Shown one piece after another: positions 5,485 through 30,416 of a stretch of 35,872 bases of DNA. How positions within the stretch are numbered: the stretch's first letter is position 1; each line of letters opens with the position of its first letter. Source of the stretch: a virus (lineage: Duplodnaviria > Caudoviricetes); the IMG/VR virus record IMGVR_UViG_3300024283_000074, positions 1-35,872 of that record, one strand, 5' to 3'. Under the pieces are notes generated by a model. The model was not told the DNA's origin. It saw only the letters and a program-made list of their open reading frames with translations, and searched no databases. A program made the position numbers and the translations under genes.

Positions 5485-5529
5485 GGTTGGGGATGCCTCT
5501 AACATCCCCAGCCGCTCTTTAGAGGAGAG
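5485..5529 (+). promoter_or_regulatory. kissing-loop leader 1 (SD-sequestering)
   Basis: hairpin loops cctctaa (5496) and ttagagg (5519) are reverse complements; ATG at 5532. Confidence 0.8.
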
Positions 5530-5531
5530 AC

Positions 5532-6185
5532 ATGTTACCCGTAGGATACAAGTTCAAAGTTGTGAGCGAAGCTAAACTGGCGCAAGCAAGAATAGCCGCT
5601 GATTTAGGAAGAGTAGCTAACACTGTTCTTTCTCTTGAGAGACGTAGAAAATATAACGAGTCTCCGAACTATTGTAAAGAATGTAAAGCGCCTATTTTGG
5701 TTCACGCAGGCGCCACAGGTAGTCAATTTGCTTGGATAAAAAAGAAAAAATTTTGTGGTCATTCTTGTGGTGCTAAGTATCAGAATCGTGTTTTAGGTTA
5801 TCCGCACCGAGTGCCTAAAATACGAGTTTGTACGTCTTGTGGTGTGAAGTACACGAGTCCGTATAAACGAACAGTTCGTTGTTCCGATTGTAGGCATCTG
5901 CCGATAGTTTCTATTCTTTCGTCAAGAAAGAAATCGGAATGCAGAATACAAGAAGTAAGATTACACGCTAGAAAAGAACTATTTAAGGCATCAGATCGTA
6001 AGTGTAAGGTTTGTGGTTATAGCATACGCGTTGATTGCTGTCACATAAAACCGATAAAAGAGTTTCCGAGCAACGCTTTATTATCTGAGATTAACGCACA
6101 AAGCAATCTTGTGGCTCTGTGTCCTAATCATCACGTTGAATTAGATTTAGGAATTTTGATTTTAGATCGGGTTGTAGTTCCGTAA
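5532..6185 (+). CDS. HNH endonuclease with N-terminal zinc-binding modules
   Basis: multiple CxxC; CKVCG..CCHIKP...NLVALCPNHH HNH motif. Confidence 0.85.
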   Translation: MLPVGYKFKVVSEAKLAQARIAADLGRVANTVLSLERRRKYNESPNYCKECKAPILVHAGATGSQFAWIKKKKFCGHSCGAKYQNRVLGYPHRVPKIRVCTSCGVKYTSPYKRTVRCSDCRHLPIVSILSSRKKSECRIQEVRLHARKELFKASDRKCKVCGYSIRVDCCHIKPIKEFPSNALLSEINAQSNLVALCPNHHVELDLGILILDRVVVP

Positions 6186-6255
6186 TCTGGCAGCGGTCTC
6201 GGTTCGGAACCGAGTGTCTACGACCTTCGAGGTTCGAATCCTCGCAGCCCGACCA
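6168..6255 (+). tRNA. tRNA-Pro(CGG) with long variable arm
   Basis: cgggttg/cagcccg, ctcgg-ttCGGaa-ccgag, GTTCGAATC T-arm, CCA. Confidence 0.85.
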
Positions 6256-6272
6256 AGTTTTCTGCCCGTCGC

Positions 6273-6345
6273 TGGAGTGTAGGCAAGCTGGTAATCCGCT
6301 GCACTGTTAATGCAGACATCGCAGGTTCGACTCCTGCCGCTCCAG
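6273..6345 (+). tRNA. tRNA-Asn(GTT)
   Basis: ctgca-ctGTTaa-tgcag; canonical T-arm; G73; CCA not encoded. Confidence 0.85.
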
Positions 6346-6368
6346 CGATTGGCAGAAAGATTTTCAAC

Positions 6369-6443
6369 AGAGATAGGGTCAGTTGGTAACGACGCGCCCT
6401 TGTCACGGGCGAAGTGCCAGTTCGATTCTGGTTATCTCTGCCA
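6369..6443 (+). tRNA. tRNA-Asp(GTC)
   Basis: agagata/tatctct, cgccc-ttGTCac-gggcg, G73-CCA. Confidence 0.85.
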
Positions 6444-6692
6444 AGATATTCCACGGGAGTTTTCTCGGGCTGTTTCGACGGTTCGAGAAAAATCCTACAC
6501 CGAGGCGTGAAGCCACCGTGGAAGAGATGTTGTACAACAAGAGCCTCAACAATCTCGGGTCGCTCCCAATGATTGGCGTCGTCGACTGGTAAGGCGCATA
6601 CGGCTCCGGCGATAAAAGATCGCCCCAGCACCTTATTCCGCCTACGCGCGGTGGCCGGGGTGCGCTGATTAAATACCGGCCCGGATTTCTAT

Positions 6693-6777
6693 TCCCGAGT
6701 GGAGGAATGCATACTTACCGAGTTTAGACCTCGGCGCTCGAAAGAGATTGTGGGTCCAAGTCCCACCTCGGGAACCA
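6693..6777 (+). tRNA. tRNA-Leu(TAG)
   Basis: ccgag-ttTAGac-ctcgg, long variable arm, A73-CCA. Confidence 0.85.
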
Positions 6778-6792
6778 AATTTTGGAGGAAGC

Positions 6793-6912
6793 ATGAAGTA
6801 CCTAAGCTTTCCAGTAAAGTTAATCCCAGTCGTTTTGATTGGAGCGGTTGCAGTGCTCATCGGCGTGCGATGGGAAGATATTCGAGAGCAAGCAACGTAC
6901 TTTTTATTTTAA
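6793..6912 (+). CDS. small membrane protein (39 aa, not in ORF track)
   Basis: GGAGG SD; MKYLSFPVKLIPVVLIGAVAVLIGVRW... Confidence 0.55.
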   Translation: MKYLSFPVKLIPVVLIGAVAVLIGVRWEDIREQATYFLF

Positions 6913-6918
6913 GAATTT

Positions 6919-6993
6919 GGTTCTATCGTCTAAAAGGATAGGATGGTGCCTTCTAAGCACCGAATCTCGGTTCGATTCCGAGTGGAACCCCCA
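6919..6993 (+). tRNA. tRNA-Arg(TCT)
   Basis: ggtgc-ctTCTaa-gcacc, canonical T-arm, CCA. Confidence 0.9.
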
Positions 6994-7072
6994 ATATTGC
7001 TGGCGTAGGCGCGCTCCTCTAGACCTCATGAATCGAAGGGGCCAGCAACCAATTTAATTTTGTACGTACATC

Positions 7073-7119
7073 GGTTGGGAGTGCCGCAATCACTCCCACC
7101 CACTCTATTGCGGAGGGTG
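7073..7119 (+). promoter_or_regulatory. kissing-loop leader 2
   Basis: loops ccgcaat (7084) / attgcgg (7107); ATG at 7122. Confidence 0.8.
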
Positions 7120-7121
7120 AA

Positions 7122-7580
7122 ATGGTTTGTCGAAAGTGTGGTAAAGAAGGCGAGTTTCATAAACGCCCAAACGGGAAGTTTTATTATCACTGTAAAAAGT
7201 GTCAAAACGCTTATGTTCGTTCGCACTATAATGCAAACAAGAAGCAATATTTAGACAGGAACAAAAGATACAAAAAGGATTCACAAACTCGTTTGGTTCA
7301 ATACCTGAGAGAGCATCCTTGTGTTGATTGTGGTGAGAGTGACCCGGTAGTCTTGGATTTCGACCACGTGATAGGTAAGAAGAGAACAGAAGTCAGCGTG
7401 ATGGCAAGGTCTTCTTATCAGTGGCATATCATACTAAAAGAAATTGCCAAGTGCGTTATTCGGTGCGCTAATTGTCACCGCCGTAAGACCTACGGGCACA
7501 TGAAAAAGTATCAAAGGGCTGTTGGTCCAGCAGATAAGACGGCGGTCTACGAAACCGCAAACCACGGCGCACATCCGTGA
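7122..7580 (+). CDS. HNH endonuclease
   Basis: CVDCGESDPVVLDFDHV...EIAKCVIRCANCHR motif; N-terminal CxxC pair. Confidence 0.85.
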   Translation: MVCRKCGKEGEFHKRPNGKFYYHCKKCQNAYVRSHYNANKKQYLDRNKRYKKDSQTRLVQYLREHPCVDCGESDPVVLDFDHVIGKKRTEVSVMARSSYQWHIILKEIAKCVIRCANCHRRKTYGHMKKYQRAVGPADKTAVYETANHGAHP

Positions 7581-7590
7581 CGGCCTTCCA
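7516..7590 (+). tRNA. tRNA-Arg(ACG)
   Basis: gcggt-ctACGaa-accgc, CCA; atypical T-loop cgcacat; overlaps the HNH 3' end. Confidence 0.75.
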
Positions 7591-7597
7591 AAATTTT

Positions 7598-7674
7598 GAC
7601 CCCGTGGCGCAAATGGATAGCGCAGCCGTTTCCTAAACGGCGGGTTGTGTGTTCGAATCACACCGAGGTCACCA
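7598..7674 (+). tRNA. tRNA-Arg(CCT)
   Basis: gccgt-ttCCTaa-acggc, canonical D/T arms, CCA. Confidence 0.9.
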
Positions 7675-7754
7675 AGTTTCCCCGAGGGGTGGGACACGTC
7701 CCCGAAGGCTATGAGGCACACGTTTGTTCCGTGCTGAGGGTGAATAAATTTAAT

Positions 7755-7838
7755 CCGCTGCTGGCTGGAATTGGCAGACGCGTTCGGCTCAAACCCGAAT
7801 CCGAAAGGGTGTAGGTTCGAATCCTACGCGGCGGACCA
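7755..7838 (+). tRNA. tRNA-Leu(CAA)
   Basis: ttcgg-ctCAAac-ccgaa, variable arm, A73-CCA. Confidence 0.9.
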
Positions 7839-7988
7839 AGTTTGATGCGGCCCGCAAGGGCTACATGGTCTGTCTTAGCAGGCCGCGCTGATTGCCACCG
7901 CTGGCTCAGAACTTAAACGTACAACTAAGAATTGAGCGTTTGTTACTGATAGTAAGTTGCGACGAGGGTGGACGCATCAAAATATTTC

Positions 7989-8062
7989 GCACGAGTCGGC
8001 AAACGGTAAGCTAGGTGTCTGCAAAACATCAACCGCTGGTTCGACTCCAGCCTCGTGCTCCA
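7989..8062 (+). tRNA. tRNA-Cys(GCA)
   Basis: ggtgt-ctGCAaa-acatc, U73-CCA. Confidence 0.9.
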
Positions 8063-8156
8063 AGTTCGTGAAAGTGGCAAAGAACCCCCGAAGGGCGTCC
8101 GACGATTCAATTAGAGAATCGCAACGGAATTTAAAAGCGCCCGACACGAAGAAGTT

Positions 8157-8452
8157 TGGTAGCGTAGACGAACGCGTGTACGAAAAGGTGCAAGTCGAAA
8201 GATTTGTACATATCGTACCCGAGGAAATTCAGGCCACGCCTCAACACAGAATTGTGGAAGTTGCAAGACGAGTAATCGTACAAGTAAGCCTCGGTAGTCG
8301 AAAGACTCATTGGAGCCGAGTAACTCTTTTCTGGTGTAACTTTAAATAGGACCCGAGTGCTTGTTGAGCACGATGAGGGTCGGGTTAAAGGCTCAGAGGA
8401 ATGTTCGCCCCGCGCGTAAGCGTATGACAAAAGTCTGATTATAGCGTTGCCA
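8157..8452 (+). ncRNA. rnpB: RNase P RNA (compact, phage-encoded)
   Basis: P1 ggtagcg/cgttgcc; GAGGAAATTCAGGC (8221) pairs with GTCTGATT of ACAAAAGTCTGATTAT (P4 with bulged U); AGAGGAATG at J18/2; AAATAGG; P2 cgaac/gttcg. Confidence 0.8.
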
Positions 8453-8460
8453 TTAATTTT

Positions 8461-8536
8461 CGTCTGCGATTTCGAGGGGCAGAATACTTCTCTCTTAAAG
8501 AAGCTGGTCTCGGTTCGAGCCCGAGGCGGACGACCA
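8461..8536 (+). tRNA. tRNA-Lys(CTT)
   Basis: cttct-ctCTTaa-agaag, A73-CCA. Confidence 0.8.
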
Positions 8537-8542
8537 AGTTTT

Positions 8543-8618
8543 GGGTTTGTAGCTCAATTGGCAGAGCACCTATCTTTTAAATAGGGGCGTGTAGGATCGT
8601 TGCCTACCGGACCCACCA
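8543..8618 (+). tRNA. tRNA-Lys(TTT)
   Basis: cctat-ctTTTaa-atagg, CCA; atypical T-loop atcgttg. Confidence 0.85.
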
Positions 8619-8621
8619 ATC

Positions 8622-8803
8622 TTACGGAGATGTTGGTTCGAGTCCAACACGGTTTCTTCGGAGGCCGTTCGTCGAATGGTAAGACACCGTTAAAACCGGA
8701 GATGTGAGTTCGAGTCTCACAAAAGCAATGTCGGAGCGATCCGAGGCGCGAGTCAGCCGTGTATACGGCGCGTCGCTTATGGTGCAATGGTAGCACGCCG
8801 TAA
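8622..8803 (+). ncRNA. tandem circularly permuted tRNA-like RNA (Y RNA/YrlA-like topology)
   Basis: two modules in the order T-arm, closed acceptor stem, D-arm; ends ttacgg/ccgtaa are complementary; no CCA. Confidence 0.6.
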
Positions 8804-8814
8804 CAATTTTCTGT

Positions 8815-8891
8815 AGAAGGCTAGCTCAATTGGTCAGAGCGGCTGCCTTACAAGCAGTAGGTTCACGGTTCGAGTCCGTGGCTTTCTACCA
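8815..8891 (+). tRNA. tRNA-Val(TAC)
   Basis: gctgc-ctTACaa-gcagt, canonical arms, CCA. Confidence 0.9.
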
Positions 8892-8897
8892 AATTTT

Positions 8898-9098
8898 ATG
8901 GGAAGAATAATACAACGCAAGATGTCTGGCTACATTCTGGATTTACCAGAACGACTAAAGTTGTTCGTCACCGACGGACGTACTGGGCAACGAATCGAGA
9001 TCAAAGACGATTTGGATTTCTGGATGCGAACAAGGTTCTCTTATTTCACCGAGGTTTTTGAAAAGCAAGGCTTGGACGGTTTTAAAAGTTTCGAATAA
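8898..9098 (+). CDS. hypothetical protein
   Basis: 66-aa ORF filling a gap between RNA genes; start uncertain. Confidence 0.45.
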   Translation: MGRIIQRKMSGYILDLPERLKLFVTDGRTGQRIEIKDDLDFWMRTRFSYFTEVFEKQGLDGFKSFE

Positions 9099-9118
9099 AC
9101 GAGTTTAACAGGTGACTT

Positions 9119-9355
9119 ATGACGTGGCAGGACGCACTCCTGATTCTCGAAGCAGTCATCTTGTTCTTGATTTATCTCGACGATCACGCGATGCGTCAGA
9201 TGGCAAAAGAAAGTTTGCTCATCAGTCGAGAGAGTTTAGAGGCACAGAAACAATATCTTGATCTAAGACGGAAATGGTACGAAAGCCGTTTGAAGAAGAA
9301 GGACAATGACAAGGCAGCAGTGGGATTTAGCTCTAGCGATAGCACGAACGGTTAG
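9119..9355 (+). CDS. membrane-anchored coiled-coil hypothetical protein
   Basis: AGGTG SD; hydrophobic N-terminus. Confidence 0.55.
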   Translation: MTWQDALLILEAVILFLIYLDDHAMRQMAKESLLISRESLEAQKQYLDLRRKWYESRLKKKDNDKAAVGFSSSDSTNG

Positions 9356-9413
9356 TGGTATGCTGAGCGCAACTGCTTCTCTCATCATTCTTTGGAAAGT
9401 GTTTCATCATTAA
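9306..9413 (+). CDS. small hydrophobic protein (35 aa, not in ORF track)
   Basis: AAGGA SD; MTRQQWDLALAIARTVSGMLSATASLIILWKVFHH. Confidence 0.4.
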   Translation: MTRQQWDLALAIARTVSGMLSATASLIILWKVFHH

Positions 9414-9480
9414 GTTTACTCGCGGACGCTGTGCTCGTAAGACACAGAAGGATGTACGATGAAGTCGTCCGCAAAATTTC

Positions 9481-9575
9481 ATTGGTCAGCATCGGTATGC
9501 AGCGGGCTCTTATAAAGCCCGGATTGACTCCTGATTAGAGTTGCCGATAGCGTTCGACTCGCTAGGCCAATACCA
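9481..9575 (+). tRNA. non-canonical tRNA-Ile(TAT) with long variable arm and reduced D-arm
   Basis: attggtc/ggccaat, gggct-ctTATaa-agccc, ~25-nt variable region, T-arm tagcg-ttcgact-cgcta, A73-CCA. Confidence 0.7.
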
Positions 9576-9579
9576 GTTT

Positions 9580-9662
9580 GGGCTTGTGGCGAAACAGGCA
9601 AACGCGGCGCACTTAAAACGCGCTCCGAAAGGTTATCGGTTCGATTCCGATCTTGCCCACCA
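9580..9662 (+). tRNA. tRNA-Leu(TAA)
   Basis: gcgca-ctTAAaa-cgcgc, variable arm, CCA. Confidence 0.85.
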
Positions 9663-9668
9663 AGTTAC

Positions 9669-9742
9669 GGCGTTGTAGTCTAATGGCAGAACACTTGGTT
9701 CTCAACCAAGTAGTCCGGGTCCGATCCCCGGCGACGTCACCA
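9669..9742 (+). tRNA. tRNA-Glu(CTC)
   Basis: cttgg-ttCTCaa-ccaag, CCA. Confidence 0.85.
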
Positions 9743-9779
9743 AGTTTTGAAGTAGATGTATAGTTGTAGGAGGGTTATA

Positions 9780-10085
9780 ATGAATGTTGTATCAGCAGTT
9801 GCAAATCTCGTAAAAGAACGAGATTATTATCGCGATTTAGTAAGTGAAGCCCAAGATGTGATTAGGCAACTTACAGAAGGCCCCGGGAACATCGAGTACA
9901 TCCATCCGATGGATTTAGCCAATGTCCTTAACGACATGACTATCACGGGCGCGAATGTAATTAAAGACGATGGATATACCGCATCGGGAAAAGATATAGA
10001 AATAATCGAAGCCGTCGGCAGCAAAAAGAAATACAGGCAGTCGATTATGATGCCGAGAACAAAGATCAAAGCCGAAGTCATCTAA
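9780..10085 (+). CDS. hypothetical protein
   Basis: AGGAGG SD before ATG at 9780; stop codon lies inside tRNA-Glu(TTC). Confidence 0.6.
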   Translation: MNVVSAVANLVKERDYYRDLVSEAQDVIRQLTEGPGNIEYIHPMDLANVLNDMTITGANVIKDDGYTASGKDIEIIEAVGSKKKYRQSIMMPRTKIKAEVI

Positions 10086-10144
10086 AGGCAGGATACGAGA
10101 CTTTCAATCTCGCGGCGAGGGGTCAGTACCCTCCTTCGGTACCA
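10071..10144 (+). tRNA. tRNA-Glu(TTC)
   Basis: cgaga-ctTTCaa-tctcg, CCA; atypical T-loop gtcagta. Confidence 0.8.
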
Positions 10145-10154
10145 AATTTTCAAT

Positions 10155-10230
10155 GGGGTTTTAGCTCATTCAGGAGAGCGCAGGTTTTGCAAATCTGAGG
10201 CGGTCGGGGCAGAGCCGACAAGCTCCACCA
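10155..10230 (+). tRNA. tRNA-Ala(TGC)
   Basis: G3:U70 pair, caggt-ttTGCaa-atctg, CCA; atypical T-loop ggcagag. Confidence 0.85.
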
Positions 10231-10289
10231 AATTTAAAGGAGATGTTATGACAGTTACAATTCATTAGATAACCTAGGAGGTTACTAAG

Positions 10290-10640: not shown

Positions 10641-10647
10641 TTTCTGT

Positions 10648-11790: not shown

Positions 11791-11791
11791 A

Positions 11792-12050: not shown

Positions 12051-12809
12051 ATGAAAGTTCTTCGCGCAGTCACGCTAGCAGCGTGTTTGGTTTTTGCAAG
12101 TTCGGCTCAAGCAGTTAACAAGAATCACGAGAGAGCCCAAAAAGCTACGATGGTTCTTTACGGGCACTCTGACGAACGCCACATGACTATCCCGTTGTGT
12201 ACAGCGTTCGTTTACGAGAAGTCGACTGACGGTTATTTTCTTTTGACCGCCGGTCATTGCTTTGACGAGAACCCGGCAGACGCAACGTACTACGTCGCGG
12301 ATCAAGTTATCGAGGACCCGCAAGTAGAAGACTTGCAGCCAGTCGAAGTGCTGAGACACGTCGATGACGGCAAGATGGACGCGGCGGAACTTCATTTCAA
12401 GACTAAGAAAGTCTACGAGGTTCTTGAGTTAGACAACAAGCCGACTAAGATCGACGACAAAGTTTTTTACGTAGGCTACCCCGAAATGTTGACGCAAGTC
12501 GTTTACGTCGGTCGAGTGTCTAGTGGTCCTATCAAAGTAGCAGGACACGTCGGAAGAGCAGAGTGCGACATTTGTAAAGGTCGAATCTTGATTCAAGACG
12601 GCGGTGGTCCCGGAGCCTCTGGCTCGGCTGTTATTAGCGAGAAGACAGGCAAGGTTATCGGCATTCTCGAAGGTCACGTTTTCGAAAATGGTGTCGTGGT
12701 TGTTCCCACCCCGTTGCTTAATGTGTACCTGAGTCAACAGCCAAAGAAAGAATCATCGAGTAAAGATTTTTTAGCGCGCCCGTCCGGAGAAACCCGATGG
12801 CAGGATTAA
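12051..12809 (+). CDS. secreted trypsin-like (S1) serine protease
   Basis: signal peptide MKVLRAVTLAACLVFASSAQA; catalytic motifs LTAGHC, D, GPGASGS. Confidence 0.85.
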   Translation: MKVLRAVTLAACLVFASSAQAVNKNHERAQKATMVLYGHSDERHMTIPLCTAFVYEKSTDGYFLLTAGHCFDENPADATYYVADQVIEDPQVEDLQPVEVLRHVDDGKMDAAELHFKTKKVYEVLELDNKPTKIDDKVFYVGYPEMLTQVVYVGRVSSGPIKVAGHVGRAECDICKGRILIQDGGGPGASGSAVISEKTGKVIGILEGHVFENGVVVVPTPLLNVYLSQQPKKESSSKDFLARPSGETRWQD

Positions 12810-12898: not shown

Positions 12899-12914
12899 GT
12901 TTGTACGTACAATT

Positions 12915-12964
12915 AGTTGGGGAGTGCCCTTAACACTCCCCGACTTGCTCTTTAAGGGAGGGCA
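12915..12964 (+). promoter_or_regulatory. kissing-loop leader 3
   Basis: loops cccttaa (12927) / ttaaggg (12952); ATG at 12969. Confidence 0.8.
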
Positions 12965-12968
12965 CTAT

Positions 12969-13367
12969 ATGGGTAGTGATAGATGGAAACGAAAACACGC
13001 AGAAGAAATGCGAAAGTATCGTAGGGATTACTACTACAGAAATAAAGAAGAACACTATCAACGAAACCGTAAGCAAGCATCTAAAATTCGTTCTTTTATC
13101 AAGTCTGTAAAGAAAGCATCGAAGTGTGTGGTGTGTGGTGAAAAAGACATTAGATGTTTGGATTTTCATCACAAGAACCCCAAAATTAAAGAAAAGGCTA
13201 TCAGTCAAGTTTTTCGTGTAGGGTGGTCGTTAAGCCACCTCGAAAAAGAAATTGCCAAATGTGTAATACTTTGTTCGAACTGTCATCGTAAAAAGCACAT
13301 CTGTAAAGTGTGCAACCGATTCAAAAACAACCACAGCAGTAGATGTAGATTTTATTTAGGTCGTTAA
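12969..13367 (+). CDS. HNH endonuclease (related to 7122..7580)
   Basis: CVVCGEKDIRCLDFHH...EIAKCVILCSNCHR; start moved to the ATG after GGAGG. Confidence 0.85.
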   Translation: MGSDRWKRKHAEEMRKYRRDYYYRNKEEHYQRNRKQASKIRSFIKSVKKASKCVVCGEKDIRCLDFHHKNPKIKEKAISQVFRVGWSLSHLEKEIAKCVILCSNCHRKKHICKVCNRFKNNHSSRCRFYLGR

Positions 13368-15515: not shown

Positions 15516-15592
15516 GAGTTTTTAAAAAGTTTTTGAAGTCACAGATTGTGATTTCAAGCAATAGATATCCCTCGGGGTTGCTCCCGGGGCTA

Positions 15593-15642
15593 GACTTGGA
15601 GGGTGCCTATTACACCCTCCTTGTCGTTCTTAATAGGAGAAT
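15593..15642 (+). promoter_or_regulatory. kissing-loop leader 4
   Basis: loops cctatta (15606) / taatagg (15631); ATG at 15647. Confidence 0.8.
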
Positions 15643-15646
15643 AAAA

Positions 15647-16276
15647 ATGAGAAGCGGATTATGTTCGTTTTGCAAAAATGTTTTAACTTTAGAAAACTCT
15701 AAGCCATCTGTTTTTAAAAAGAGAGCCGGATATTGCCGTTCGTGTGCCCGAATAAAAAGAGGTCCCGGCAGATGTCATGCATGCAAAGAGATTTTTTCTG
15801 AGAGCAACAGCAACCCATCGACACTAAAAATCGGCAGAGGCAAATGTAGGATTTGTGAAAATCTAGAATATCAAAAAGTAGCCGAAAAAGTAAAAGAAAG
15901 AGCCGAAAAATGGGCGGCTAAAAATTCTGTTAAACACAAACAGTTTTGTCGAAGTTGGTATAGAAAAAAGAAATACGGAATAACGAGAGAAGAGTTTGAA
16001 GCTCAGTTTAATCTACAGCGAGGGCTTTGTTCTATTTGTAAAGAGCCTATGATTACCAGCGGAAAACCTCGCGGTAAAAGAGTTTGCCAAGACCACAATC
16101 ACGAGACAGGTAAACTGAGAGATTTATTGTGCTCTAGTTGTAATCTGCTGTTAGGAAACTCTTACGAAAATGAAAAGATTCTCGTAAATGCGATTTTGTA
16201 TTTACGAAAACACGCAGACGGTAGCTCGATCCAAACTGTCTGTGATGGCGTACAGAATATTTCTGTCGCGTCATAA
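15647..16276 (+). CDS. endonuclease VII-family (HNH-like) homing endonuclease
   Basis: KYGIT...QRGLCSIC...QDHNHETGKLRDLLCSSCNLLLG; two N-terminal CxxC..CxxC repeats. Confidence 0.85.
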   Translation: MRSGLCSFCKNVLTLENSKPSVFKKRAGYCRSCARIKRGPGRCHACKEIFSESNSNPSTLKIGRGKCRICENLEYQKVAEKVKERAEKWAAKNSVKHKQFCRSWYRKKKYGITREEFEAQFNLQRGLCSICKEPMITSGKPRGKRVCQDHNHETGKLRDLLCSSCNLLLGNSYENEKILVNAILYLRKHADGSSIQTVCDGVQNISVAS

Positions 16277-18153: not shown

Positions 18154-18765
18154 ATGGCACACAAACTAGTAGCCCTCCTAATCCGTCATGGTACGACAAA
18201 TCTTAACGACCAAAACAAGTTTAGGGGCCCCGCCGATCCCGATTTGGATGATAAAGGTAAAGAACAAGCCGAAGAAATCGGTAAGCAATTGAAAGGACGT
18301 TCGTTCAGCGGAGTTTTCACAAGCAGCAAAAAACGCTCAAAGCAAACAGCAGATATCGCACTCGGCGGGAAGAAACACAAAGCCGTAAAGAATCTCGATC
18401 CTCTTAACGTTGGTGACTTTGCAGGGCAGCCGAAGAACGACGAGAACATGAAACAAATTGTTCACCATCAGGAGAATCCCGACGAAGTGATTCCGGGCGG
18501 TGAGAGTATCAATCAATTCAGAGCGCGCGTCAATCCAAAGATTAAGATGATTATTAGACGTGGCGAAGATAGCGGTAAACCAGCGGTAGCGTTCGTTCAC
18601 AGTTCTACGATTCATCAACTCGGACATTTGCTTCACGATGACCACAATCATGTGAAAGTGAAACCGGGAGGAATGGCCGGAGTATTCAAAGGACCATTCG
18701 GGTATTACGCCAAGGCTTTAACAAAAGAAAGCCACGACGAAAAAGATAAGCACATGGTGAGCTAA
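18154..18765 (+). CDS. histidine phosphatase (phosphoglycerate mutase family)
   Basis: LIRHG.T..N motif, S...RS.QTA, PGGES..F..RV, VHS. Confidence 0.9.
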   Translation: MAHKLVALLIRHGTTNLNDQNKFRGPADPDLDDKGKEQAEEIGKQLKGRSFSGVFTSSKKRSKQTADIALGGKKHKAVKNLDPLNVGDFAGQPKNDENMKQIVHHQENPDEVIPGGESINQFRARVNPKIKMIIRRGEDSGKPAVAFVHSSTIHQLGHLLHDDHNHVKVKPGGMAGVFKGPFGYYAKALTKESHDEKDKHMVS

Positions 18766-19262: not shown

Positions 19263-19306
19263 TATAAATTATTTTTAAAATTCCTCGGGGTTGCTCCTGA
19301 GGCGCA

Positions 19307-19359
19307 GATTCGAGGGCGTGCCTAAACCACGCCCCGGGTCGCATTCTGTTTAGGAGAAT
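19307..19359 (+). promoter_or_regulatory. kissing-loop leader 5
   Basis: loops cctaaac (19321) / gtttagg (19348); ATG at 19363. Confidence 0.8.
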
Positions 19360-19362
19360 AAA

Positions 19363-19977
19363 ATGAAAACATGTTGTCATTGCAAGCAAGAACTGTCCTT
19401 AGATTCTTTTCAAAAGAATAGAGTCGCTCCCGACGGTTTACAATACCGCTGTAAGGATTGTACAAGGACGGCGCATAAAGAGTGCTATGCAAAACGTGGG
19501 CACTTGTGGCTTCCAGCAGCCGAACAATGGAAGAACAGGCCCGAGAACCGAGAGCGTAGAAACAAAACAACTCGCGAAAGAATGGCTAGACTTAAAGTAG
19601 AAAATCCAGAAAAGTACAAAGAAGATAGAAGGCGTTGGCAACTTTCTGCCAAGTACGATATAACGCCGGAGTTAAAACAGGCGTTGGTAGAAATCCAAGG
19701 AAGTATTTGCGCCATCTGTTTTGATCCCATAGATGCGATTAGCTGTGCAACAGATCACAGCCACGTAGGAAAGTATGTTAGGGGTATGTTGTGTAAACCC
19801 TGTAATTCTGCTTTAGGATTCTTTAAAGACAGCCCCGAAATTCTAAGAAGAGCAGCAGAGTATTTAGAAAAATCCAAAGACATAGAATTAGAGCCAACCG
19901 CTGAAGATTTTGAAATCGCAACAAATTTGTTGCAGGAGTATTTAGATGGCGAAAGTAAAAAACCCGTCTCTCTATAG
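19363..19977 (+). CDS. endonuclease VII-family homing endonuclease
   Basis: KTCCHCK..DGLQYRCKDC; QGSICAIC...DHSH...VRGMLCKPCNSALGFFKDSP. Confidence 0.88.
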   Translation: MKTCCHCKQELSLDSFQKNRVAPDGLQYRCKDCTRTAHKECYAKRGHLWLPAAEQWKNRPENRERRNKTTRERMARLKVENPEKYKEDRRRWQLSAKYDITPELKQALVEIQGSICAICFDPIDAISCATDHSHVGKYVRGMLCKPCNSALGFFKDSPEILRRAAEYLEKSKDIELEPTAEDFEIATNLLQEYLDGESKKPVSL

Positions 19978-23292: not shown

Positions 23293-23309
23293 TTTTGTAC
23301 GTACAACCT

Positions 23310-23359
23310 GATTGGGGCGTGCCTGTAACACGCCTCAGTCTACTCTTTACAGGAGAGTG
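23310..23359 (+). promoter_or_regulatory. kissing-loop leader 6
   Basis: loops cctgtaa (23322) / ttacagg (23347); ATG at 23363. Confidence 0.8.
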
Positions 23360-23362
23360 AAA

Positions 23363-24097
23363 ATGTTTATTTATTTGATTACGAATTTGATTAACGGCAA
23401 ACGGTACATTGGGCAGACTAAACAAAGCCTGTCTGCTCGATGGAACATGCACGTATCTAAAAATCATTGCCGATATTTGTACAATGCGATTCAGAAACAC
23501 GGAAGAGAGAACTTCTCTATGGAAGTTCTGTTCGATGTTCCGACTAAAGAGTTGGCGAATGAGTTTGAGATAGAGTACATAAAACGTTATTGCACTTTGT
23601 TTCCTAACGGGTACAACATTCTTCCCGGTGGAGATGATAGACCGCCATTAACAGAAAAACAACGCCAAGCTATCTCTAAGTTACACAAAGGCAATAAGTA
23701 TCGTGTGGGGCATGTTCCTTCTGAAGAAACAAAAAGAAAACTGTCTTTAGCTAACACCGGTAAAAAGATGACACATGAACAAAGGCAAAAGCTGTCCGCT
23801 GCCATGAAAGGGAATAAAAATCCCAGCGGAAGACACGTGTCTGAAGAAACTCGACGCAAGATAGGTTCGGCGCACAAAGGCAAAATTCTTTCAAAAGAAA
23901 CAAAGCAACAACTTTCTATCGCACACAGCGGTAAAAAGGCAACAGAAGAGACTCGTGAGAATATGCGTTTAGCCCAACAAAAGAGACGGCTAAACGAATC
24001 TCCAGAAGATAGGAAACGAATGCCCTTATCTGAAGAGGTTAAACATAGGATGAAGTTGTCGCAAATGGCTAGAAGGTTAAGAGAGCGCAATGTCTGA
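23363..24097 (+). CDS. GIY-YIG homing endonuclease with NUMOD3-type repeats
   Basis: FIYLITNLINGKRYIGQT, R, E, NGYN; repeated SEETKRKLS.A..GK. Confidence 0.9.
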   Translation: MFIYLITNLINGKRYIGQTKQSLSARWNMHVSKNHCRYLYNAIQKHGRENFSMEVLFDVPTKELANEFEIEYIKRYCTLFPNGYNILPGGDDRPPLTEKQRQAISKLHKGNKYRVGHVPSEETKRKLSLANTGKKMTHEQRQKLSAAMKGNKNPSGRHVSEETRRKIGSAHKGKILSKETKQQLSIAHSGKKATEETRENMRLAQQKRRLNESPEDRKRMPLSEEVKHRMKLSQMARRLRERNV

Positions 24098-26204
24098 CCA
24101 AGATCAGAGAATTCAGCAAAAAATCCACGATCTCTATGTTACTCCTGCGAATGAGATTACAGAGGAAAATACACACGTAGATAAAGAAACCGACACCATC
24201 GCATTTAACGATTCTGCCGCCGTGAAACTGGTTATAGACGACACAACAGAAGCAGATTCGTATTTGAACCTCCAACAATGGAGTAGCGGGTGGACCCTCG
24301 CAGATTTATTGTATCAATCACCCGCGACACAAAGCGCCTTTGATGGCGGAAGTGTTGGAAGCTCATCGGTTCCTAAATTCATGGTGAGCAATCACATTTC
24401 ATCCATCGTTCCCAAAGTCATGGGAGGGTTGTTTTACGAGGACCCGCCATTCGATCTTCGTCCTCGCCCGTCTGTATCGCAAGATGTAGTTAGAGCCAAA
24501 GAAGCAATTTTTTCGGCTCAACTAGATCAGATGCACTTCGAAGAAGAAGTCGAACGTACTATGGAACAAGCTGCCCTTTTGGGCACTGGTATCATGAAGT
24601 ACGGTTTCGTCGAATTCGAAAAGAAGATGCGCCGTTACAAGCGCAAAGGCGAACGTAAGCCTATTGAGCAACCAGACGGAAGTGTCAAGATGGTTGACAC
24701 ACCCGAATCGGATGATTACGAAGCCGAAGAGTACACGAAGAAGATTTCGCATCCTTGGATTAAATTCTGCGATATTCGCACAGTGCTTGTAAATCCGGGT
24801 TGCCGCGTCGGCGACATTCGCCGCGCGGGCTGGGTTGTATATCGCGATTACGCAACGTACAGCGATCTTAACCGTCTACGTGGCGTAGAAGGCTACAACA
24901 TTCCTGAAGAGGATGTGCTCAGAGCAATCTTTGCGCAGAACCCGACATCGGGTCCAGACAATATTACGATGACGCTTCCGGAAGGCATGATGGGATATAT
25001 CCAACATGCTTTGCCACGCAGCTACAAGACTTCAGCCGATCCTAACCGTTCACCTATCGAGATTTTGGAACGTTGGGATGACGAGAAGGTTATTGTGATT
25101 CTGTCCTTCAACGGACACAATATTCTTGTTCGCAATGAAGCGAACCCGTACGGACACATTCCGTTCTATTCGTTCAATTGGCGAAACATTCCGGATTGTT
25201 TTTACGGACAAGGGCTTGGTCTTCTTATCGGAAGCGAGCAAATCGTTGAGCAAGGCGTAACAAACTTGGCTCTTGATTTGTTGGCGTACGGTTTGCAACC
25301 AACCGCCGTTCGTAAGAAAGGTTTTAACGCTCTTACCCAAGACGTCCGTTGGCGTCAAGGCGGAATTATCGACGTCGAAGAAGACGTCGACAAGGCATTT
25401 AAGTTTCTTCAGATGCCGCCGGTCCCGGGAGAAGCGTGGCAGTTCATTGCACAAGCTCAGTCATCGGGAGCGTCGACGTCAGGAGCGAACGAACAAGTTG
25501 TTCAAGGCGCAGGTGCCGCTGGTATTAAAACCACAGGCATGCGTTCGGGAACGGGCGCGGCAGCGGTTATTCAAGCTAACGCCAGCCGACTTGATGGTCC
25601 GACAGGACGATTCGTTCGTCAAGTGTTCAAGCCGTGGCTGTATCAGATGGATGAACTCAACAATCTATTGTTGCCAACGTCGGTCATTCGTGACTTACTC
25701 GGCGACGAGCTTGGTGAGCCATATCTAGTCGACCATATTGAATTCCGAGAAGCGAACATCGAATATGAAGTTCTCGCGGGCGCGCAGTTGGGCGCGAAGA
25801 AGGAAATGGCGCAAGCCCTTCCTATAATTATTCAACTTTTGAACAACCCCTCATTCACAGCAAATGCTAACGATGCAGGGTATCAATTTGATGCTGTTGC
25901 AATCTTTAAGGCGTTTGTGGATGCGGCGGGTTGGAAATTTAGTCAATCGTTCCTCCGCAAGATGACACCAGAAGAAGCACAGCGTCACCAAGCTAACTCG
26001 CCTGCAGCCTTACAGCAAGCACAGGCAGCCAGTGCCGCTCAAATGCAGAAAGCAAACTTCGAGCACGAACAACAAATAGAGAACCAGAAACAGTTGGGTA
26101 AGGCAGGAAATGAAGCGTTTCGTGCCGCCATCAATAAGGCTACACAGCCTGAATTGATAGGACAAAATACAACATCTGGGTTCGGTTCAACAACAGCTTT
26201 GTAA
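24090..26204 (+). CDS. portal protein
   Basis: 704 aa between terminase and scaffold/capsid; ALLGTGIMK, NPYGHIPF, FYGQGL motifs; Gln/Ala-rich tail. Confidence 0.85.
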   Translation: MSDQDQRIQQKIHDLYVTPANEITEENTHVDKETDTIAFNDSAAVKLVIDDTTEADSYLNLQQWSSGWTLADLLYQSPATQSAFDGGSVGSSSVPKFMVSNHISSIVPKVMGGLFYEDPPFDLRPRPSVSQDVVRAKEAIFSAQLDQMHFEEEVERTMEQAALLGTGIMKYGFVEFEKKMRRYKRKGERKPIEQPDGSVKMVDTPESDDYEAEEYTKKISHPWIKFCDIRTVLVNPGCRVGDIRRAGWVVYRDYATYSDLNRLRGVEGYNIPEEDVLRAIFAQNPTSGPDNITMTLPEGMMGYIQHALPRSYKTSADPNRSPIEILERWDDEKVIVILSFNGHNILVRNEANPYGHIPFYSFNWRNIPDCFYGQGLGLLIGSEQIVEQGVTNLALDLLAYGLQPTAVRKKGFNALTQDVRWRQGGIIDVEEDVDKAFKFLQMPPVPGEAWQFIAQAQSSGASTSGANEQVVQGAGAAGIKTTGMRSGTGAAAVIQANASRLDGPTGRFVRQVFKPWLYQMDELNNLLLPTSVIRDLLGDELGEPYLVDHIEFREANIEYEVLAGAQLGAKKEMAQALPIIIQLLNNPSFTANANDAGYQFDAVAIFKAFVDAAGWKFSQSFLRKMTPEEAQRHQANSPAALQQAQAASAAQMQKANFEHEQQIENQKQLGKAGNEAFRAAINKATQPELIGQNTTSGFGSTTAL

Positions 26205-26239
26205 AATACTTCCCGTGGGCTTATAATCCACGGCTTTAC

Positions 26240-26288
26240 TGATACAGGGGGAGCCTTATACTCCCCCAGATCACTCTTATAAGGAGAG
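26240..26288 (+). promoter_or_regulatory. kissing-loop leader 7
   Basis: loops ccttata (26254) / tataagg (26278); ATG at 26293. Confidence 0.8.
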
Positions 26289-26292
26289 ACAA

Positions 26293-26787
26293 ATGACAGA
26301 CGCAGAAAAGAAACATGCTTGGTATCTTGCACACGCAGAAGAAGTAAAAGAACGTTCGAGACTATGGGCACTGAATAACCCCGAGCGCATCAAAGAATTA
26401 AATCTCAAGAAAAGCAGAAAGTACGAACAGACGCACAAAAGGCACAGAGACCCCGAAAGAATCGCCAGAACTAAAGAGTGGATTAAAAAGCATCCTGACA
26501 GAGTTGCTGAAATTGCTCGCAAGCACAATTACGGTATTACGCCTGAAGAGTACAAAGAGAAAGTTAAAAAACAAAGGAATCGTTGTGCTCTGTGCGGCAA
26601 CAAAGAAACCCACAAAGACCATCGTTCAGGCAAGGTAAGAGTTTTATCGGTAGATCACGACCACAAAACCAACAAGTTAAGAGGTCTTCTTTGTGGCAAT
26701 TGCAATAGGGGTTTAGGTATGTTTAAAGACAGCATAGACCTTTTACTTAAAGCAATCAAATATTTGAAAAAGCATAAGAGGTCCTAA
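26293..26787 (+). CDS. endonuclease VII-family homing endonuclease
   Basis: YGITPEEY...QRNRCALC...LSVDHDHKTNKLRGLLCGNCNRGLGMFKDS. Confidence 0.9.
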   Translation: MTDAEKKHAWYLAHAEEVKERSRLWALNNPERIKELNLKKSRKYEQTHKRHRDPERIARTKEWIKKHPDRVAEIARKHNYGITPEEYKEKVKKQRNRCALCGNKETHKDHRSGKVRVLSVDHDHKTNKLRGLLCGNCNRGLGMFKDSIDLLLKAIKYLKKHKRS

Positions 26788-27236
26788 TGACTGAGAGACA
26801 AAAAGAAAAGCAAACAATTCTTTCACCAGATTTGTCACCCGCAAAGAAAGCACTGCTTTTGCAAGTAATTCTTTCACCCGGGTGGAAAGTGGTTGAGGAA
26901 ATCGCTAACGAAGCCTGTCTCAGGTTCACACAGGACATTATAAGATTAGACCCAGAATCAGAGGATTACGAGCGTGTAGCCCAAACAAGAACATTACGCG
27001 CTCGTAACGCCTCAGAGTTTAGTGATCTTCTTTTCAAGTCAATTGTCGTACACGCTAATTCAATACGACAGACGCAAGCGAAAGAAGATAGAGAAGTGGT
27101 TGAATCCGTAGGCGCAGCGTTCGGAATTCATCCAGCAAAGAAAGCGGACCCGAAGGCCGATCCGGCAGAAGCCATAAAGAAGACTTTTGGCATTCATCCG
27201 GCTCGTCCCAAGAAGTCTGAAAATAGTGTTAAGTAA
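26787..27236 (+). CDS. hypothetical protein (post-portal head-module gene)
   Basis: TAATG coupling; SPGWKVV motif; duplicated FGIHPA at the C-terminus. Confidence 0.7.
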   Translation: MTERQKEKQTILSPDLSPAKKALLLQVILSPGWKVVEEIANEACLRFTQDIIRLDPESEDYERVAQTRTLRARNASEFSDLLFKSIVVHANSIRQTQAKEDREVVESVGAAFGIHPAKKADPKADPAEAIKKTFGIHPARPKKSENSVK

Positions 27237-27283
27237 TTCCCTCCCGAGGGGAAGCAGTTGAATTAATCTTAAGGAACAATAAA

Positions 27284-28603
27284 ATGAGACTTACCGCAAA
27301 TGACATCAGCCTAACATGGCTTGAGTCCGCAACACTCGAAGATTTGAAATCCGCGATGAGAGCCGGTGGCGACGTATTGAACGCCGTCAACGCTTTGCTC
27401 GTCACACCCGAAGGCAAAACAATTGCCAGCGAGATGTTGAACGATCCGGATTACGTGCCGAAGTCCCGTCGTCAAGTGGACCCAGCCGAAGCCGCGCAGA
27501 TTGCAGAAGATGAGGCTAGAGCAGCCGCTGCCCTCGAAGCAGAGAAGAACGCTCAAGCGTCCGAACTAGGGGCCCCGATTACTCCCGAAGGTGAAGCGCC
27601 CGTCGTTCCCGTAGAAGAGCCGAAGAAAAAGATTGTATTAGATTATCAAGTGACCGACGAAAACGGTCAGCCTATCGGTCGTCCGACTCACATCGAGGGA
27701 TGGTCGTGGGAAGAAGTTTCCGAGAAGCAGAAGCAAGCGCACATTCACGCGGTTCGTTACGCAGAGCGCTTGAAGGCCAATCGCTCGAAGCAAGCAGTTG
27801 TGGCAGCCGATGCCGAAGTAAAGAACGCAGCCGTTAGGGCCGCAAAAGACAAGACCGCTCAACTTCTCGATGAAGCAGCAAAAGAACAAGACCCAGAGAA
27901 GAGAATTGAAGCAATTAAGAAAGTCGCCGAAGCCGAAGTAGCAGCACGAGAGGCCGAGGTAGACGCCCACCAGCAAGGCAAGAAAGTTGCCGAAGCTTGG
28001 ATGGAAGACCACAAAGAAGATTTCTTGCCGTGTCTCGCATCCTCAAACATCATGCGCGAGTATATGTCCGCTAATGGACTATCTATGTCGTATGAAAATC
28101 TTGAGAAGGCGTTTCAGGCAGTAAAACACCAGTTGCCTAAGGTTGAAAGGCAACAGGCAACTGAAGTGACAACATCTGCTGAGCCGTCGAATAATACTTC
28201 GGCATCAGCGTCCACACCCGCAGCCTCGGCCTCGGCGTCAATAACGCCAGCCGTTGTTCCGAGCAAGGAAACAGTTCAACCTACAGTACAGCCGTCAGCG
28301 GCACCGGCAACACCGGTGGTACCTCCCGCAGCGGAAACGGCCCCGAATCCTACGCCTGCAGTAGCGCAAAATGCGCAACAAACTGCCCGTAGGCCGGGAG
28401 TTAACGGTGGTTTGCAACCCGGCTCGATGTCTGCAGCACGACCGAGTGAAGCACCTAAGCCAACCATCGAACAAACTCGTTCAGTACTATTGAGAGAAAT
28501 CGCAAAGATGCCCCGTGATGAATATCGCAAAAAACTTCGTGACGCCAATTACGTCAAGAGGTTGGAAGCAGCGGGTATCCCAGTAGTCGGACAGCGCGGA
28601 TAA
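27284..28603 (+). CDS. probable capsid scaffolding protein
   Basis: immediately upstream of the capsid gene; Ala/Glu helical region, Pro/Ala/Thr low-complexity linker, C-terminal IAKMPRDEYRK helix. Confidence 0.7.
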   Translation: MRLTANDISLTWLESATLEDLKSAMRAGGDVLNAVNALLVTPEGKTIASEMLNDPDYVPKSRRQVDPAEAAQIAEDEARAAAALEAEKNAQASELGAPITPEGEAPVVPVEEPKKKIVLDYQVTDENGQPIGRPTHIEGWSWEEVSEKQKQAHIHAVRYAERLKANRSKQAVVAADAEVKNAAVRAAKDKTAQLLDEAAKEQDPEKRIEAIKKVAEAEVAAREAEVDAHQQGKKVAEAWMEDHKEDFLPCLASSNIMREYMSANGLSMSYENLEKAFQAVKHQLPKVERQQATEVTTSAEPSNNTSASASTPAASASASITPAVVPSKETVQPTVQPSAAPATPVVPPAAETAPNPTPAVAQNAQQTARRPGVNGGLQPGSMSAARPSEAPKPTIEQTRSVLLREIAKMPRDEYRKKLRDANYVKRLEAAGIPVVGQRG

Positions 28604-28641
28604 AACCGACGCTTTAATTTAAGAGGCAAAGGGTTGATCCC

Positions 28642-30320
28642 ATGAGTGGACCATCACCTTCAGCATCAAACGTATCAAACGTACTCACCGCGCAGGCGAT
28701 CTTGTTCGACAAAGAACTGATCCCGAACCTAAAGGGTGAGACAGATGCATTCGTGACCGTGGCAGAACGCCGCGTTCAGGGGTTGCATATGGGCATTAAC
28801 CGTCAGTTCTTCCAGTACAACACTCTAACGGGTGACACTGCACAAGCCGCTGACGGTAACGTTGGAGCACCGGAAGTTGTTTCGCAAATCACCGCACCGG
28901 CAACGGTCGGCGAATGGAATAACTATACAAACTTCAGCGCGTTCGCAATCGCTTCTAGCATTGACGAACTTGTTGGCAACAGCGCAGTCGAACTCGGCTA
29001 TCAAGCCGGTCAGTCGATCAGCGAGTTGTACAGCGCAGTTGCAGACAGCGCGTCAAGCGTTGACGGCAACGTAAACCAGAACGGGTTGCTTTCTTCTCCG
29101 TTCACGCTCGATCTCGCGACCGTTCGTGAAATGAAGCAGCAGCTTGTGTCGATTGACGTACTTCCTTGCAAAAAGGGGATGTACTACGGCGTCGTATCGC
29201 CTAACGTGCTTGGCGATATTTACAACGCAACGACTGTGAACAACAGCATCATCGACAACTGGAAGCACACGGAAAGTGGCCAGCGCAAGTTTGACGAAAT
29301 GGCCGGATCGGATCAGACAAAAGAAATCGTGCTTCCGGGTACGAACATTCTTTTCCGTCAGACCCCGTTCGTGACCAAGACGGCTAACTTCTCGGCTGGT
29401 AAGACCGCTTATAGAACTTACGTTTTCGGTAATTATTCTATGATCGGTGTGTGGCTCCAAGTTCAACATGGACTCATAGCAGCGTAATCTGCTAGTAGAT
29501 AATTTGCTCTGATTGACTTGAAACCTGAAACGGTAACAAGGCGGAAGCCGAAAGGCACCGTGAACGACTAAGCGAGCGAACACCCTTCGGGGTGATGCGA
29601 TAGTCTGCTCTTCATCGAATAAAAAGATGAAGAGGTTGGCAGAAATGACCAACCCCGCTTTTAAAAGCGAGTAACATACGGCCCGGAGACACAGATTTGG
29701 ATGAAGGCGATTGGAGAACCATCGGCGAGTAGGTGGTCTCGCGGCGAAATCCGCGATGAATAAATTTTAGGTGATTGACTTGAACCCTGAGATGGGAACA
29801 AGGCGCAAGCGAAAGCAGCGTGAGAGACTAAGTCCTGAAACACCCTTTGGGGTGATGCGATAGTCCGAACATACGAGAATAAAATCGTATGAAGCTAACA
29901 GAAATGATTAGCTCCATTGAAAAAATGAGTAACATATTGCGACTGCCGCGTCGTTACGGATGCTCCTCCGTCCTCATTCGATCCAACAGCAACAATCGGT
30001 GGATGGGCTTCATACCGCTTCCACCAGACAGTGACCTTGCCACCGGCAACGGGAACAAATACCCAGCGTCTACGCTGGATTGATAGTGTTCAATACGGAC
30101 TCCTAGCAGCGTAATCTGTTAGTAGAAAATTCTCTCTGATTAAGCTGAACCCTGAAATGGGAACAGACTGGAAGGAAGAAATTCCACCAGTAACGACTGA
30201 GCGAGAGAAAACCCCTCGGGGTTATGCGACAGTCTGCTCTTACAGGAAACGAAACTGTAAGAAGTCGACAGAAATGATCGACTCCGCGAAGGCGGTAACA
30301 AACGGCCTGCTATCCAGTAA
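28642..30320 (+). CDS. major capsid protein, spliced: join(28642..29463,29682..29722,29940..30090,30306..30320), 342 aa
   Basis: position after portal and scaffold; removing the three introns gives an open frame ...WLQV|PGDTDLDEGDWRTI|DCRVV...DPTATIGGWASYRF...WIDSV|PAIQ*. Confidence 0.85.
29464..29681 (+). ncRNA. group I intron 1 in capsid gene (218 nt, no ORF)
   Basis: P1 gttc-aacat-ggac puts a U.G pair at the 5' splice site; P7 elements gaacGACTAagc / gcgaTAGTCtg; terminal G. Confidence 0.88.
29723..29939 (+). ncRNA. group I intron 2 in capsid gene (217 nt, no ORF)
   Basis: P1 accatc/ggtggt with U.G at the splice site (splits ATC codon); gagaGACTAagt / gcgaTAGTCcg; terminal G. Confidence 0.88.
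30091..30305 (+). ncRNA. group I intron 3 in capsid gene (215 nt, no ORF)
   Basis: P1 gttc-aatac-ggac; aacGACTGagc / gcgaCAGTCtg (compensatory change relative to introns 1 and 2); terminal G. Confidence 0.88.
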
Positions 30321-30330
30321 CAAAAACTTC

Positions 30331-30359
30331 TTGACACGAACGATCATTCGTGTTAGGAT
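30331..30359 (+). promoter_or_regulatory. sigma70-type promoter with overlapping inverted repeat
   Basis: TTGACA-17 bp-TAGGAT; acacgaa-N6-ttcgtgt dyad spans the spacer. Confidence 0.6.
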
Positions 30360-30362
30360 TAA

Positions 30363-30416
30363 GATTGACGGGGTGTGCCATGAACACACCCCTCAATCAC
30401 ACTCTTTCATGGAGAG
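30363..30416 (+). promoter_or_regulatory. kissing-loop leader 8
   Basis: loops ccatgaa (30378) / ttcatgg (30406); ATG at 30420. Confidence 0.8.

Follow-up and report, generated by a model that had tools for sequence, protein, structure and literature searches.

We analysed a 35,872-nucleotide stretch of DNA from the IMG/VR virus record IMGVR_UViG_3300024283_000074 (hereafter the window). It covers the arm of an uncultured tailed phage devoted to tRNAs and morphogenesis and contains, all on the + strand, 28 tRNA genes and the genes for a terminase, an SU10-type portal and a major head protein. Directly upstream of eight nuclease genes in this arm lies an RNA leader made up of three parts, namely a self-complementary segment followed by two abutting hairpins with complementary loops, the second of which carries the Shine-Dalgarno (SD) sequence. 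Within the window, stem 1 spans 10-15 bp and stem 2 spans 4-6 bp, with a linker of 0-3 nt between them.

Leader 1 (5461..5531) opens with an upstream hairpin whose loop holds the palindrome TAATTA (5469-5474), followed by stem 1 from 5485, the loops CCTCTAA (5496) and TTAGAGG (5519) and the SD GGAG, and it precedes a gene for an HNH endonuclease of 217 amino acids (aa) (5532..6185; Pfam HNH_2, E 9e-6). Two more HNH endonuclease genes match phrog_2255 and have no Pfam nuclease match: one of 152 aa amid the tRNA genes (7122..7580; E 4e-31), behind leader 2 (7061..7121; palindrome TGTACGTACA at 7061-7070, loops CCGCAAT (7084) and ATTGCGG (7107)), and one of 132 aa (12969..13367; E 9e-23), behind leader 3 (12901..12968; palindrome TTGTACGTACAA, loops CCCTTAA (12927) and TTAAGGG (12952)). 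Endonuclease VII-type nucleases (PF02945) follow leader 4 (15570..15646), with an upstream hairpin whose loop is non-palindromic and the loops CCTATTA (15606) and TAATAGG (15631), leader 5 (19283..19362), with an upstream hairpin like that of leader 4 and the loops CCTAAAC (19321) and GTTTAGG (19348), and leader 7 (26213..26292), which lies directly 3' of the portal gene and has an upstream hairpin with the palindromic loop TTATAA and the loops CCTTATA (26254) and TATAAGG (26278); their genes encode 209 aa (15647..16276; E 3e-17), 204 aa (19363..19977; E 5e-20) and 164 aa (26293..26787; E 5e-22), respectively. The last two genes encode GIY-YIG nucleases with NUMOD3 (PF01541, PF07460). One, of 244 aa, overlaps the portal start (23363..24097) behind leader 6 (23295..23362, directly 3' of the terminase gene; palindrome TTGTACGTACAA, loops CCTGTAA (23322) and TTACAGG (23347)), and the other, of 213 aa (30420..31061), lies behind leader 8 (30329..30419, 3' of the capsid gene region; loops CCATGAA (30378) and TTCATGG (30406)), whose upstream hairpin overlaps a sigma70-like motif, TTGACA-17-TAGGAT (30331-30359).

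We found all eight loop pairs to be exact reverse complements, as the original prediction had stated, and the eight genes to be nucleases, by Pfam (HNH_2, Endonuclease_7, or GIY-YIG with NUMOD3) or, for those at 7122 and 12969, by PHROG HNH families. The GGAG is likewise split between the loop-loop (kissing) helix and stem 2, with GG lying in loop 2 and AG in stem 2, and the predicted unpaired probability of the SD's A is 0.01-0.06 in 8/8 leaders. A + strand scan for CC-N5 with its complement 18-33 nt downstream returned the eight leaders and one extra match inside the open reading frame (ORF) at 26293, and within the window a covariance model gave more than 14 bits at the eight leaders only, all of which belong to its training set. 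One nuclease-like ORF without a leader (34065..34721, +), which starts 1 nt past the upstream stop, forms an internal exception; it has no Pfam or PHROG family match, and its start resembles the ORFs of two other loci (L040 and L470), which cluster with GIY-YIG and have leaders.

The complementarity of the loops far exceeds chance when pairing is not imposed. Using a pattern that fixed only the frame and left the five variable loop bases free, we found that 98 of 126 matches in viral contigs pair at 5/5 positions, one pairs with a single G.U and 27 have no more than three paired positions (deduplication left 87 elements, among them 36 different loops), whereas the same pattern in cellular genomes, for the 8/64 parts of the collection scanned, gave 0/121 matches pairing at 5/5. 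Metagenomes yielded 70/117 matches at 5/5, 55 of the 70 being new. Upon freeing the CC and GG too, 21/87 matches paired at 7/7 and none at 5 or 6, and all 21 read CC...GG. In an alignment of 92 rows all three helices covary, the loop figures not being independent as the rows were picked for loop complementarity; each of the five free loop columns changes on both sides, with G.U in 1/460 cells, and stem 2 varies between C-G (69) and U-A (22).

A held-out search with a covariance model built without the loop-loop pairs gave 104 distinct matches in 60 sequence stretches, and 57 of the matches had played no part in training the model. Among these 57, 35 have fully complementary 7/7 loops, 11 have 6/6 loops, three contain one non-Watson-Crick pair and eight were misaligned by the model, of which, by eye, seven are full complements and one is a truncated leader. 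The joint shift of loop sizes (7/7 or 6/6) fits the requirement of a true hairpin-hairpin kiss, and the loops show what defines a fully paired kissing complex: equal size, Watson-Crick complementarity at every base, and covariation. Loops of 8 nt do not form a further class (0/5 matches complementary), and variants without CC exist that keep a GAG-type SD inside the helix. The total collection comprises 205 distinct leaders with 74 loop sequences. At stem-1 positions free of finder constraint, G.U-type pairs outnumber A.C by 58 to 8, which argues that the leader acts as RNA. Furthermore, the start codon lies 7-9 nt past loop 2 in 125/150 leaders, and the stem-1 cap GTG/CAC and an A at loop position 6 (163/188) are conserved beyond pairing needs. 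Overall, the loop-loop covariation that had been proposed across the variable positions is borne out, the exact loop complementarity is confirmed and a conserved RNA-level module is supported.

Upstream of stem 1 we found the self-complementary segment, which an earlier description of the leader as two hairpins had overlooked. Perfect palindromes of at least 10 nt centred 5-22 nt upstream of stem 1 occur in 47/150 leaders versus 2.6 in shuffles, and two windows further upstream held only 8 and 1. The held-out leaders repeated this, with such palindromes in 25/50 versus 0.9 shuffled and in 0/46 chance pattern matches, the new ones including TTCACATGTGAA, AACGCGCGTT and TGTCCGGACA. Other leaders carry an upstream hairpin whose loop holds TAATTA, TTATAA, TCATGA, TTCGAA or TGATCA, a 6-nt palindrome being present in such a loop in 49/107 leaders versus 28/600 before other genes. 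The commonest 10-mer palindromes adjoin a leader at 31/37 places by script and at 34 by eye. The palindrome sequence varies while self-complementarity is kept, with mismatches divided into 18 G.U, 5 A.C and 21 others. A self-complementary segment comparable to the dimerization initiation site (DIS) or the PAL elements of retroviruses is thus present in about two thirds of leaders. Self-pairing accounts for these palindromes most simply, since a plain hairpin could form without a self-complementary centre and an operator bound by a protein should be conserved in sequence. A closing stem between sequence 5' of stem 1 and sequence 3' of stem 2, forming a three-way junction, found no support, as cognate duplexes gave -10.75 versus -11.07 for permuted ones (standard deviation 0.14, n=150).

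Sigma70-like motifs lie upstream of 36/199 leaders versus 36/1071 other genes. All 36 end upstream of stem 1, so that the twin hairpins would be transcribed, and about half of the predicted transcripts would omit the upstream palindrome. In the window, TTGACA-17-TAnnnT motifs occur at 5032-5060 and at 1503 (- strand) in addition to that at leader 8, and in homologues of leader 8 the promoter spacer itself forms an inverted repeat, in many cases centred on TTGCAA.

The leader heads mostly nuclease genes. Among leader ORFs of at least 40 aa in the first set, 132/140 are nucleases, three encode replication proteins and five are unassigned, where 122 of the nuclease calls came through BLAST clusters with annotated members, which may reflect shared DNA-binding domains, and 10 singly; in the held-out set 46/51 are nucleases, three are replication proteins and two are unassigned. 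The predicted enrichment before nuclease genes therefore extends across phage relatives, and so does the notion of a portable module common to unrelated folds, since HNH, endonuclease VII, GIY-YIG and PD-(D/E)XK types are all found behind leaders. An exclusive link to nucleases holds in the window and breaks down in other phages. There, leaders precede genes for lambda-O-like or replisome-organiser proteins (L064, L106, L522, L567 and L624, of which L522 carries the palindrome AACGCGCGTT upstream of the leader) and for a primase (L250), and a copy with 6/6 loops precedes Rep in two related microvirus-like contigs of 4.6-4.8 kb (L626, 801-835 (-); L628, 801-833 (-)). As the leader is present at 2/65 microvirus Rep loci and absent from the other 63, general use by microviruses was rejected and the evidence points to sporadic capture. 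One record with a leader on a replication gene (L490) has a second twin-hairpin element at ~7760-7800 (- strand), with loops CTCACT/AGTGAG, before a 129-aa ORF.

Leaders are confined to the phage late arm. In 37 records, all 113 model matches lie on a single strand per record, and this is the portal strand in 35/35 records where both were found. Endonuclease VII genes have leaders in 38/60 cases on the portal strand and 0/42 on the opposite strand, and GIY-YIG genes in 16/24 cases on the leader strand and 0/3 opposite; in these counts three near-duplicate record pairs are kept separate, and some opposite-strand genes may be true resolvases. At least six same-strand nuclease genes scored as leaderless have variant leaders lost by the model. 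Near-identical leaders with the same promoter-like hairpin precede a GIY-YIG gene (L414 and window 30420), an endonuclease VII gene (L080) and an HNH gene (L413), so the leader seems to stay with the site while the ORFs behind it swap. Mean leader similarity, at 0.546 for the same site with different classes versus 0.505 for different sites with the same class, is weak evidence, because the crude clustering chained several insertion sites together. Orphan leaders mark places where the nuclease ORF was lost (L475, 2880-2950; L441, 3623-3684; L443, 10171-10243), two of them damaged and one intact, and one leader with 5/6 loops still precedes an intact ORF.

We then considered whether the kiss can form within one molecule. 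The two stems are separated by 0-1 nt in 159/205 leaders and by at most 3 nt in 197/205, and stem 1 ranges from 7 to 18 bp. Fully paired kisses are described as stacking all three helices, with a bend of ~28-48 degrees in the TAR-aptamer complex (PMC2602780). In a rough rod model (2.8 Å per pair, 9 Å radius, 7 Å per nucleotide), an intact cis kiss was feasible in 2/150 leaders at a total bend of 60 degrees and in 11/150 at 120 degrees. Both stems covary, yet in this model they rarely coexist with a cis kiss, and all three helices at once in a single molecule appear sterically implausible; the pseudoknot as first drawn, with both stems and the kiss in one molecule, is thus not supported. A fixed ring was set aside, since the loop-to-loop distance is broad (13-23 nt), unlike the helical-phase constraint expected of closed rings. 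With a linker of 0-1 nt and no spare loop bases, the loops would have to pair between molecules, within one molecule after fraying of stem 1, or in an H-type pseudoknot that replaces stem 2.

The leader quite probably represses translation by occluding the SD, when versions in trans and in cis are taken together. We tentatively favour, at a probability of roughly 0.45, a lock on translation that two copies of one transcript would close through reciprocal kisses, as complementary loops on stems linked by 0-1 nt, together with an upstream self-complementary element, favour an intermolecular kiss. Because hairpin 2 alone is weak (median -3.3 kcal/mol), a lone transcript would leak some translation. 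At high copy numbers, two transcripts would pair through their upstream palindromes and loop 1 of each copy would kiss loop 2 of its partner, whereupon all four GGAG bases would be paired and initiation would stop. Repression by such a dimer would grow with transcript number, which would suit nucleases in capsid and tRNA operons and replication initiators too, and nuclease output would be capped in operons whose transcription follows capsid and tRNA demand. Slightly more tentatively, the leader may be a portable, protein-free 'mRNA quorum' switch, in which two molecules of the same bacterial-type message pair via a 5' palindrome and two kisses and bury their ribosome-binding sites (RBSs), so that output falls as transcripts rise; if so, it would have been recruited by four nuclease folds, phage replication initiators and a microvirus-like Rep.

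Several observations weigh against pairing between two transcripts. A perfect 6-nt palindrome is missing in 51/150 leaders, including leaders 4, 5 and 8 of the window, and in both microvirus copies; the palindrome counts are inflated by kin copies (TAGCTA 20, TTGCAA 15, TAATTA 14, TACGTA 14); and a palindrome embedded in a promoter precedes the predicted start of the transcript from that promoter. Whole-window homodimer energies barely differ from shuffles (median -8.7 versus -6.8; share below -5, 0.82 versus 0.87), and this measure was discarded as uninformative. No signal was obtained for selection of distinct loops within one genome, where 1/161 paralogous pairs is identical versus 2.6 expected, a non-significant difference. 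Furthermore, the alternatives in cis are affordable: once stem 2 melts, an H-type pseudoknot has a feasible span in 154-192/205 leaders, and fraying of the stem-1 foot (~5 bp) has a median cost of 9.0 kcal/mol against -11.5 for loop stacking, making a cis kiss after fraying favourable in 116/150 leaders, before loop-closure entropy.

These figures bring in the close rival of the trans dimer, a double lock in cis, in which one molecule would alternate hairpin 2 with an H-type pseudoknot, where loop 1 pairs with NNNNNGG and stem 2 is open, or would kiss after its near energy-neutral stem-1 fraying, each state hiding part of GGAG and keeping translation low at any concentration. We regard it as possible though doubtful. 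It needs no partner, also covers the leaders without a palindrome, and accords with nascent RNA folding in cis first, but it leaves the upstream self-complementary element unexplained, and an H-type fold does not require the matched loop sizes of 7/7 or 6/6. Nor does its would-be L3 grow longer as stem 1 does (rho -0.52, a value that in part reflects the division of a gap of fixed length). The confinement of leaders to the late arm and the conservation of the stem-1 cap and loop position 6 could instead reflect a switch that activates or times expression, loop pairing opening stem 2 or docking a late factor of the phage, which would restrict nuclease synthesis to late times. Toxin-leader pseudoknots that activate, such as timP, do exist (PMC11228461); here, however, the GG of GGAG is itself paired in the kiss, CC...GG recurs in 21/21 matches where it was not imposed, and even the non-CC variants hold their SD in the helix, which makes this switch unlikely. 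Less likely again is a role at the DNA level, as an operator, recombination or insertion signal with the palindrome as a protein-binding dyad near a promoter. The excess of sigma70-like motifs and the near-identical leaders before different nuclease classes at one site would fit it, whereas the sense-strand preference for G.U over A.C in both stem 1 and the palindrome mismatches, the fixed position relative to the SD and the start codon, and palindromes that are alike in symmetry and not in sequence all speak for RNA.

As to the phage itself, portal relatives of 60-82% identity occur on records of ~100 kb, and among annotated phages only Tunturi_3, which infects the Acidobacteriota host Tunturiibacter (PMC11924767), matches the portal over its full length (33.8%). 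On this ground the host of the window phage is perhaps acidobacterial. Tunturi_3 does not serve as a cultured model, since it has no leader and its two annotated nucleases sit on the non-portal strand. Within the tRNA cluster of the window we noted a weak RNase P RNA-like match (8156-8457; E 5e-23), which at 80.5 bits falls short of the gathering score of RF00010 (100), and adjacent unusual tRNA calls, Ile-TAT and Phe-AAA (9481-9662), possibly degenerate; the small late-arm genes include a trypsin-like protease (12051-12809) and a histidine phosphatase (18154-18765). The major head gene (~29460-30300) is apparently broken by three related inserts of ~200 nt, with capsid-like reading continuing in other frames; the inserts, which look like group I introns, gave no Rfam match in this region.

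We describe, then, an uncatalogued family of RNA whose natural covariation is very strong and which is tied to one job, that of preceding genes for proteins that cut or open DNA. The leader likely limits how much nuclease is made, probably through pairing between two message copies. Such a limit suggests a way for phages to cope with numerous homing nucleases in the operons that they transcribe most, a question still open in work on T4 (PMC2988022). An intermolecular kiss would amount to control of translation by the concentration of the mRNA itself, with neither a protein nor an antisense RNA involved. The ~70-nt leader has natural loop variants that supply ready-made specificity controls, and it could also be used in dosage control as an orthogonal part.

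Rfam 15 contains no match to the leader near gathering score in the whole window (E<=5) or in 20 homologous loci (E<=10), in line with the original view that it lies outside described families; one 18.8-bit snoRNA match (gathering 70) falls just upstream of the leader in one locus (L090), and int-alpA (RF02996) was rejected, with no match at E<=1 in 5/5 phage records of the clade or in the window. In the open-access and bioRxiv literature, covered mostly as listings, we found no description of the leader and, for a bacterial or phage RBS, none of control by own mRNA concentration without protein or antisense RNA. The main text of a 224-motif survey, the part covered, mentions neither endonucleases nor kissing (PMC5737381), and the portion consulted of a 2026 review of RNA assemblies tabulates no such leader (PMC12990946). 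Known systems nevertheless share its elements one by one.

The loops of ColE1 RNAI and RNAII measure 7 nt. Like the leader, RNAI-RNAII and the TAR-TAR* pair of human immunodeficiency virus (HIV) have 6- or 7-nt loops with every base Watson-Crick paired, but they join two different RNAs, whereas the leader has both loops itself and requires no antisense gene (PMC2602780). In the leader of Moloney murine leukaemia virus (MoMuLV), 5' palindromes (PAL1/PAL2) and reciprocal SL1-SL2' kisses drive dimers (PMC7357161). HIV-1 DIS, MoMuLV PAL1/PAL2 and the head-to-tail loops of phi29 pRNA resemble the phage leader in having a palindromic element and two complementary loops per protomer; those RNAs serve genome packaging, whereas the phage leader is ~70 nt long and sits on a bacterial-type RBS, its dimerization being predicted only (PMC7357161). 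The timP leader likewise has a pseudoknot and alternative folds at the RBS of a harmful gene, but its pseudoknot activates translation and is targeted by a small RNA, whereas the loop-loop helix here takes in SD bases (PMC11228461).

The nearest parallel in purpose comes from the T-even homing nucleases (I-TevI, I-TevII, I-TevIII, segB and Aeh1 mobE), which have single stable RBS hairpins that a late promoter bypasses (PMC2988022). In both cases a phage homing endonuclease whose message forms part of a long host-gene transcript has its SD covered by a structure, and the predicted purpose is the same; in the leader, the RNA structure is predicted to pair the nuclease SD, stem 2 pairing AG and covarying. 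The T-even late promoter leaves out the hairpin-forming sequence, whereas the promoter-like motifs found here lie upstream of stem 1. In place of a single very stable hairpin, the leader has a weak hairpin 2 and two further conserved modules, a second hairpin that adds a covarying loop-loop helix and the upstream segment, and one architecture is common to HNH, endonuclease VII, GIY-YIG and PD-(D/E)XK genes. Hence, the leader is predicted to work like the T-even RBS hairpins while falling outside their structural definition.

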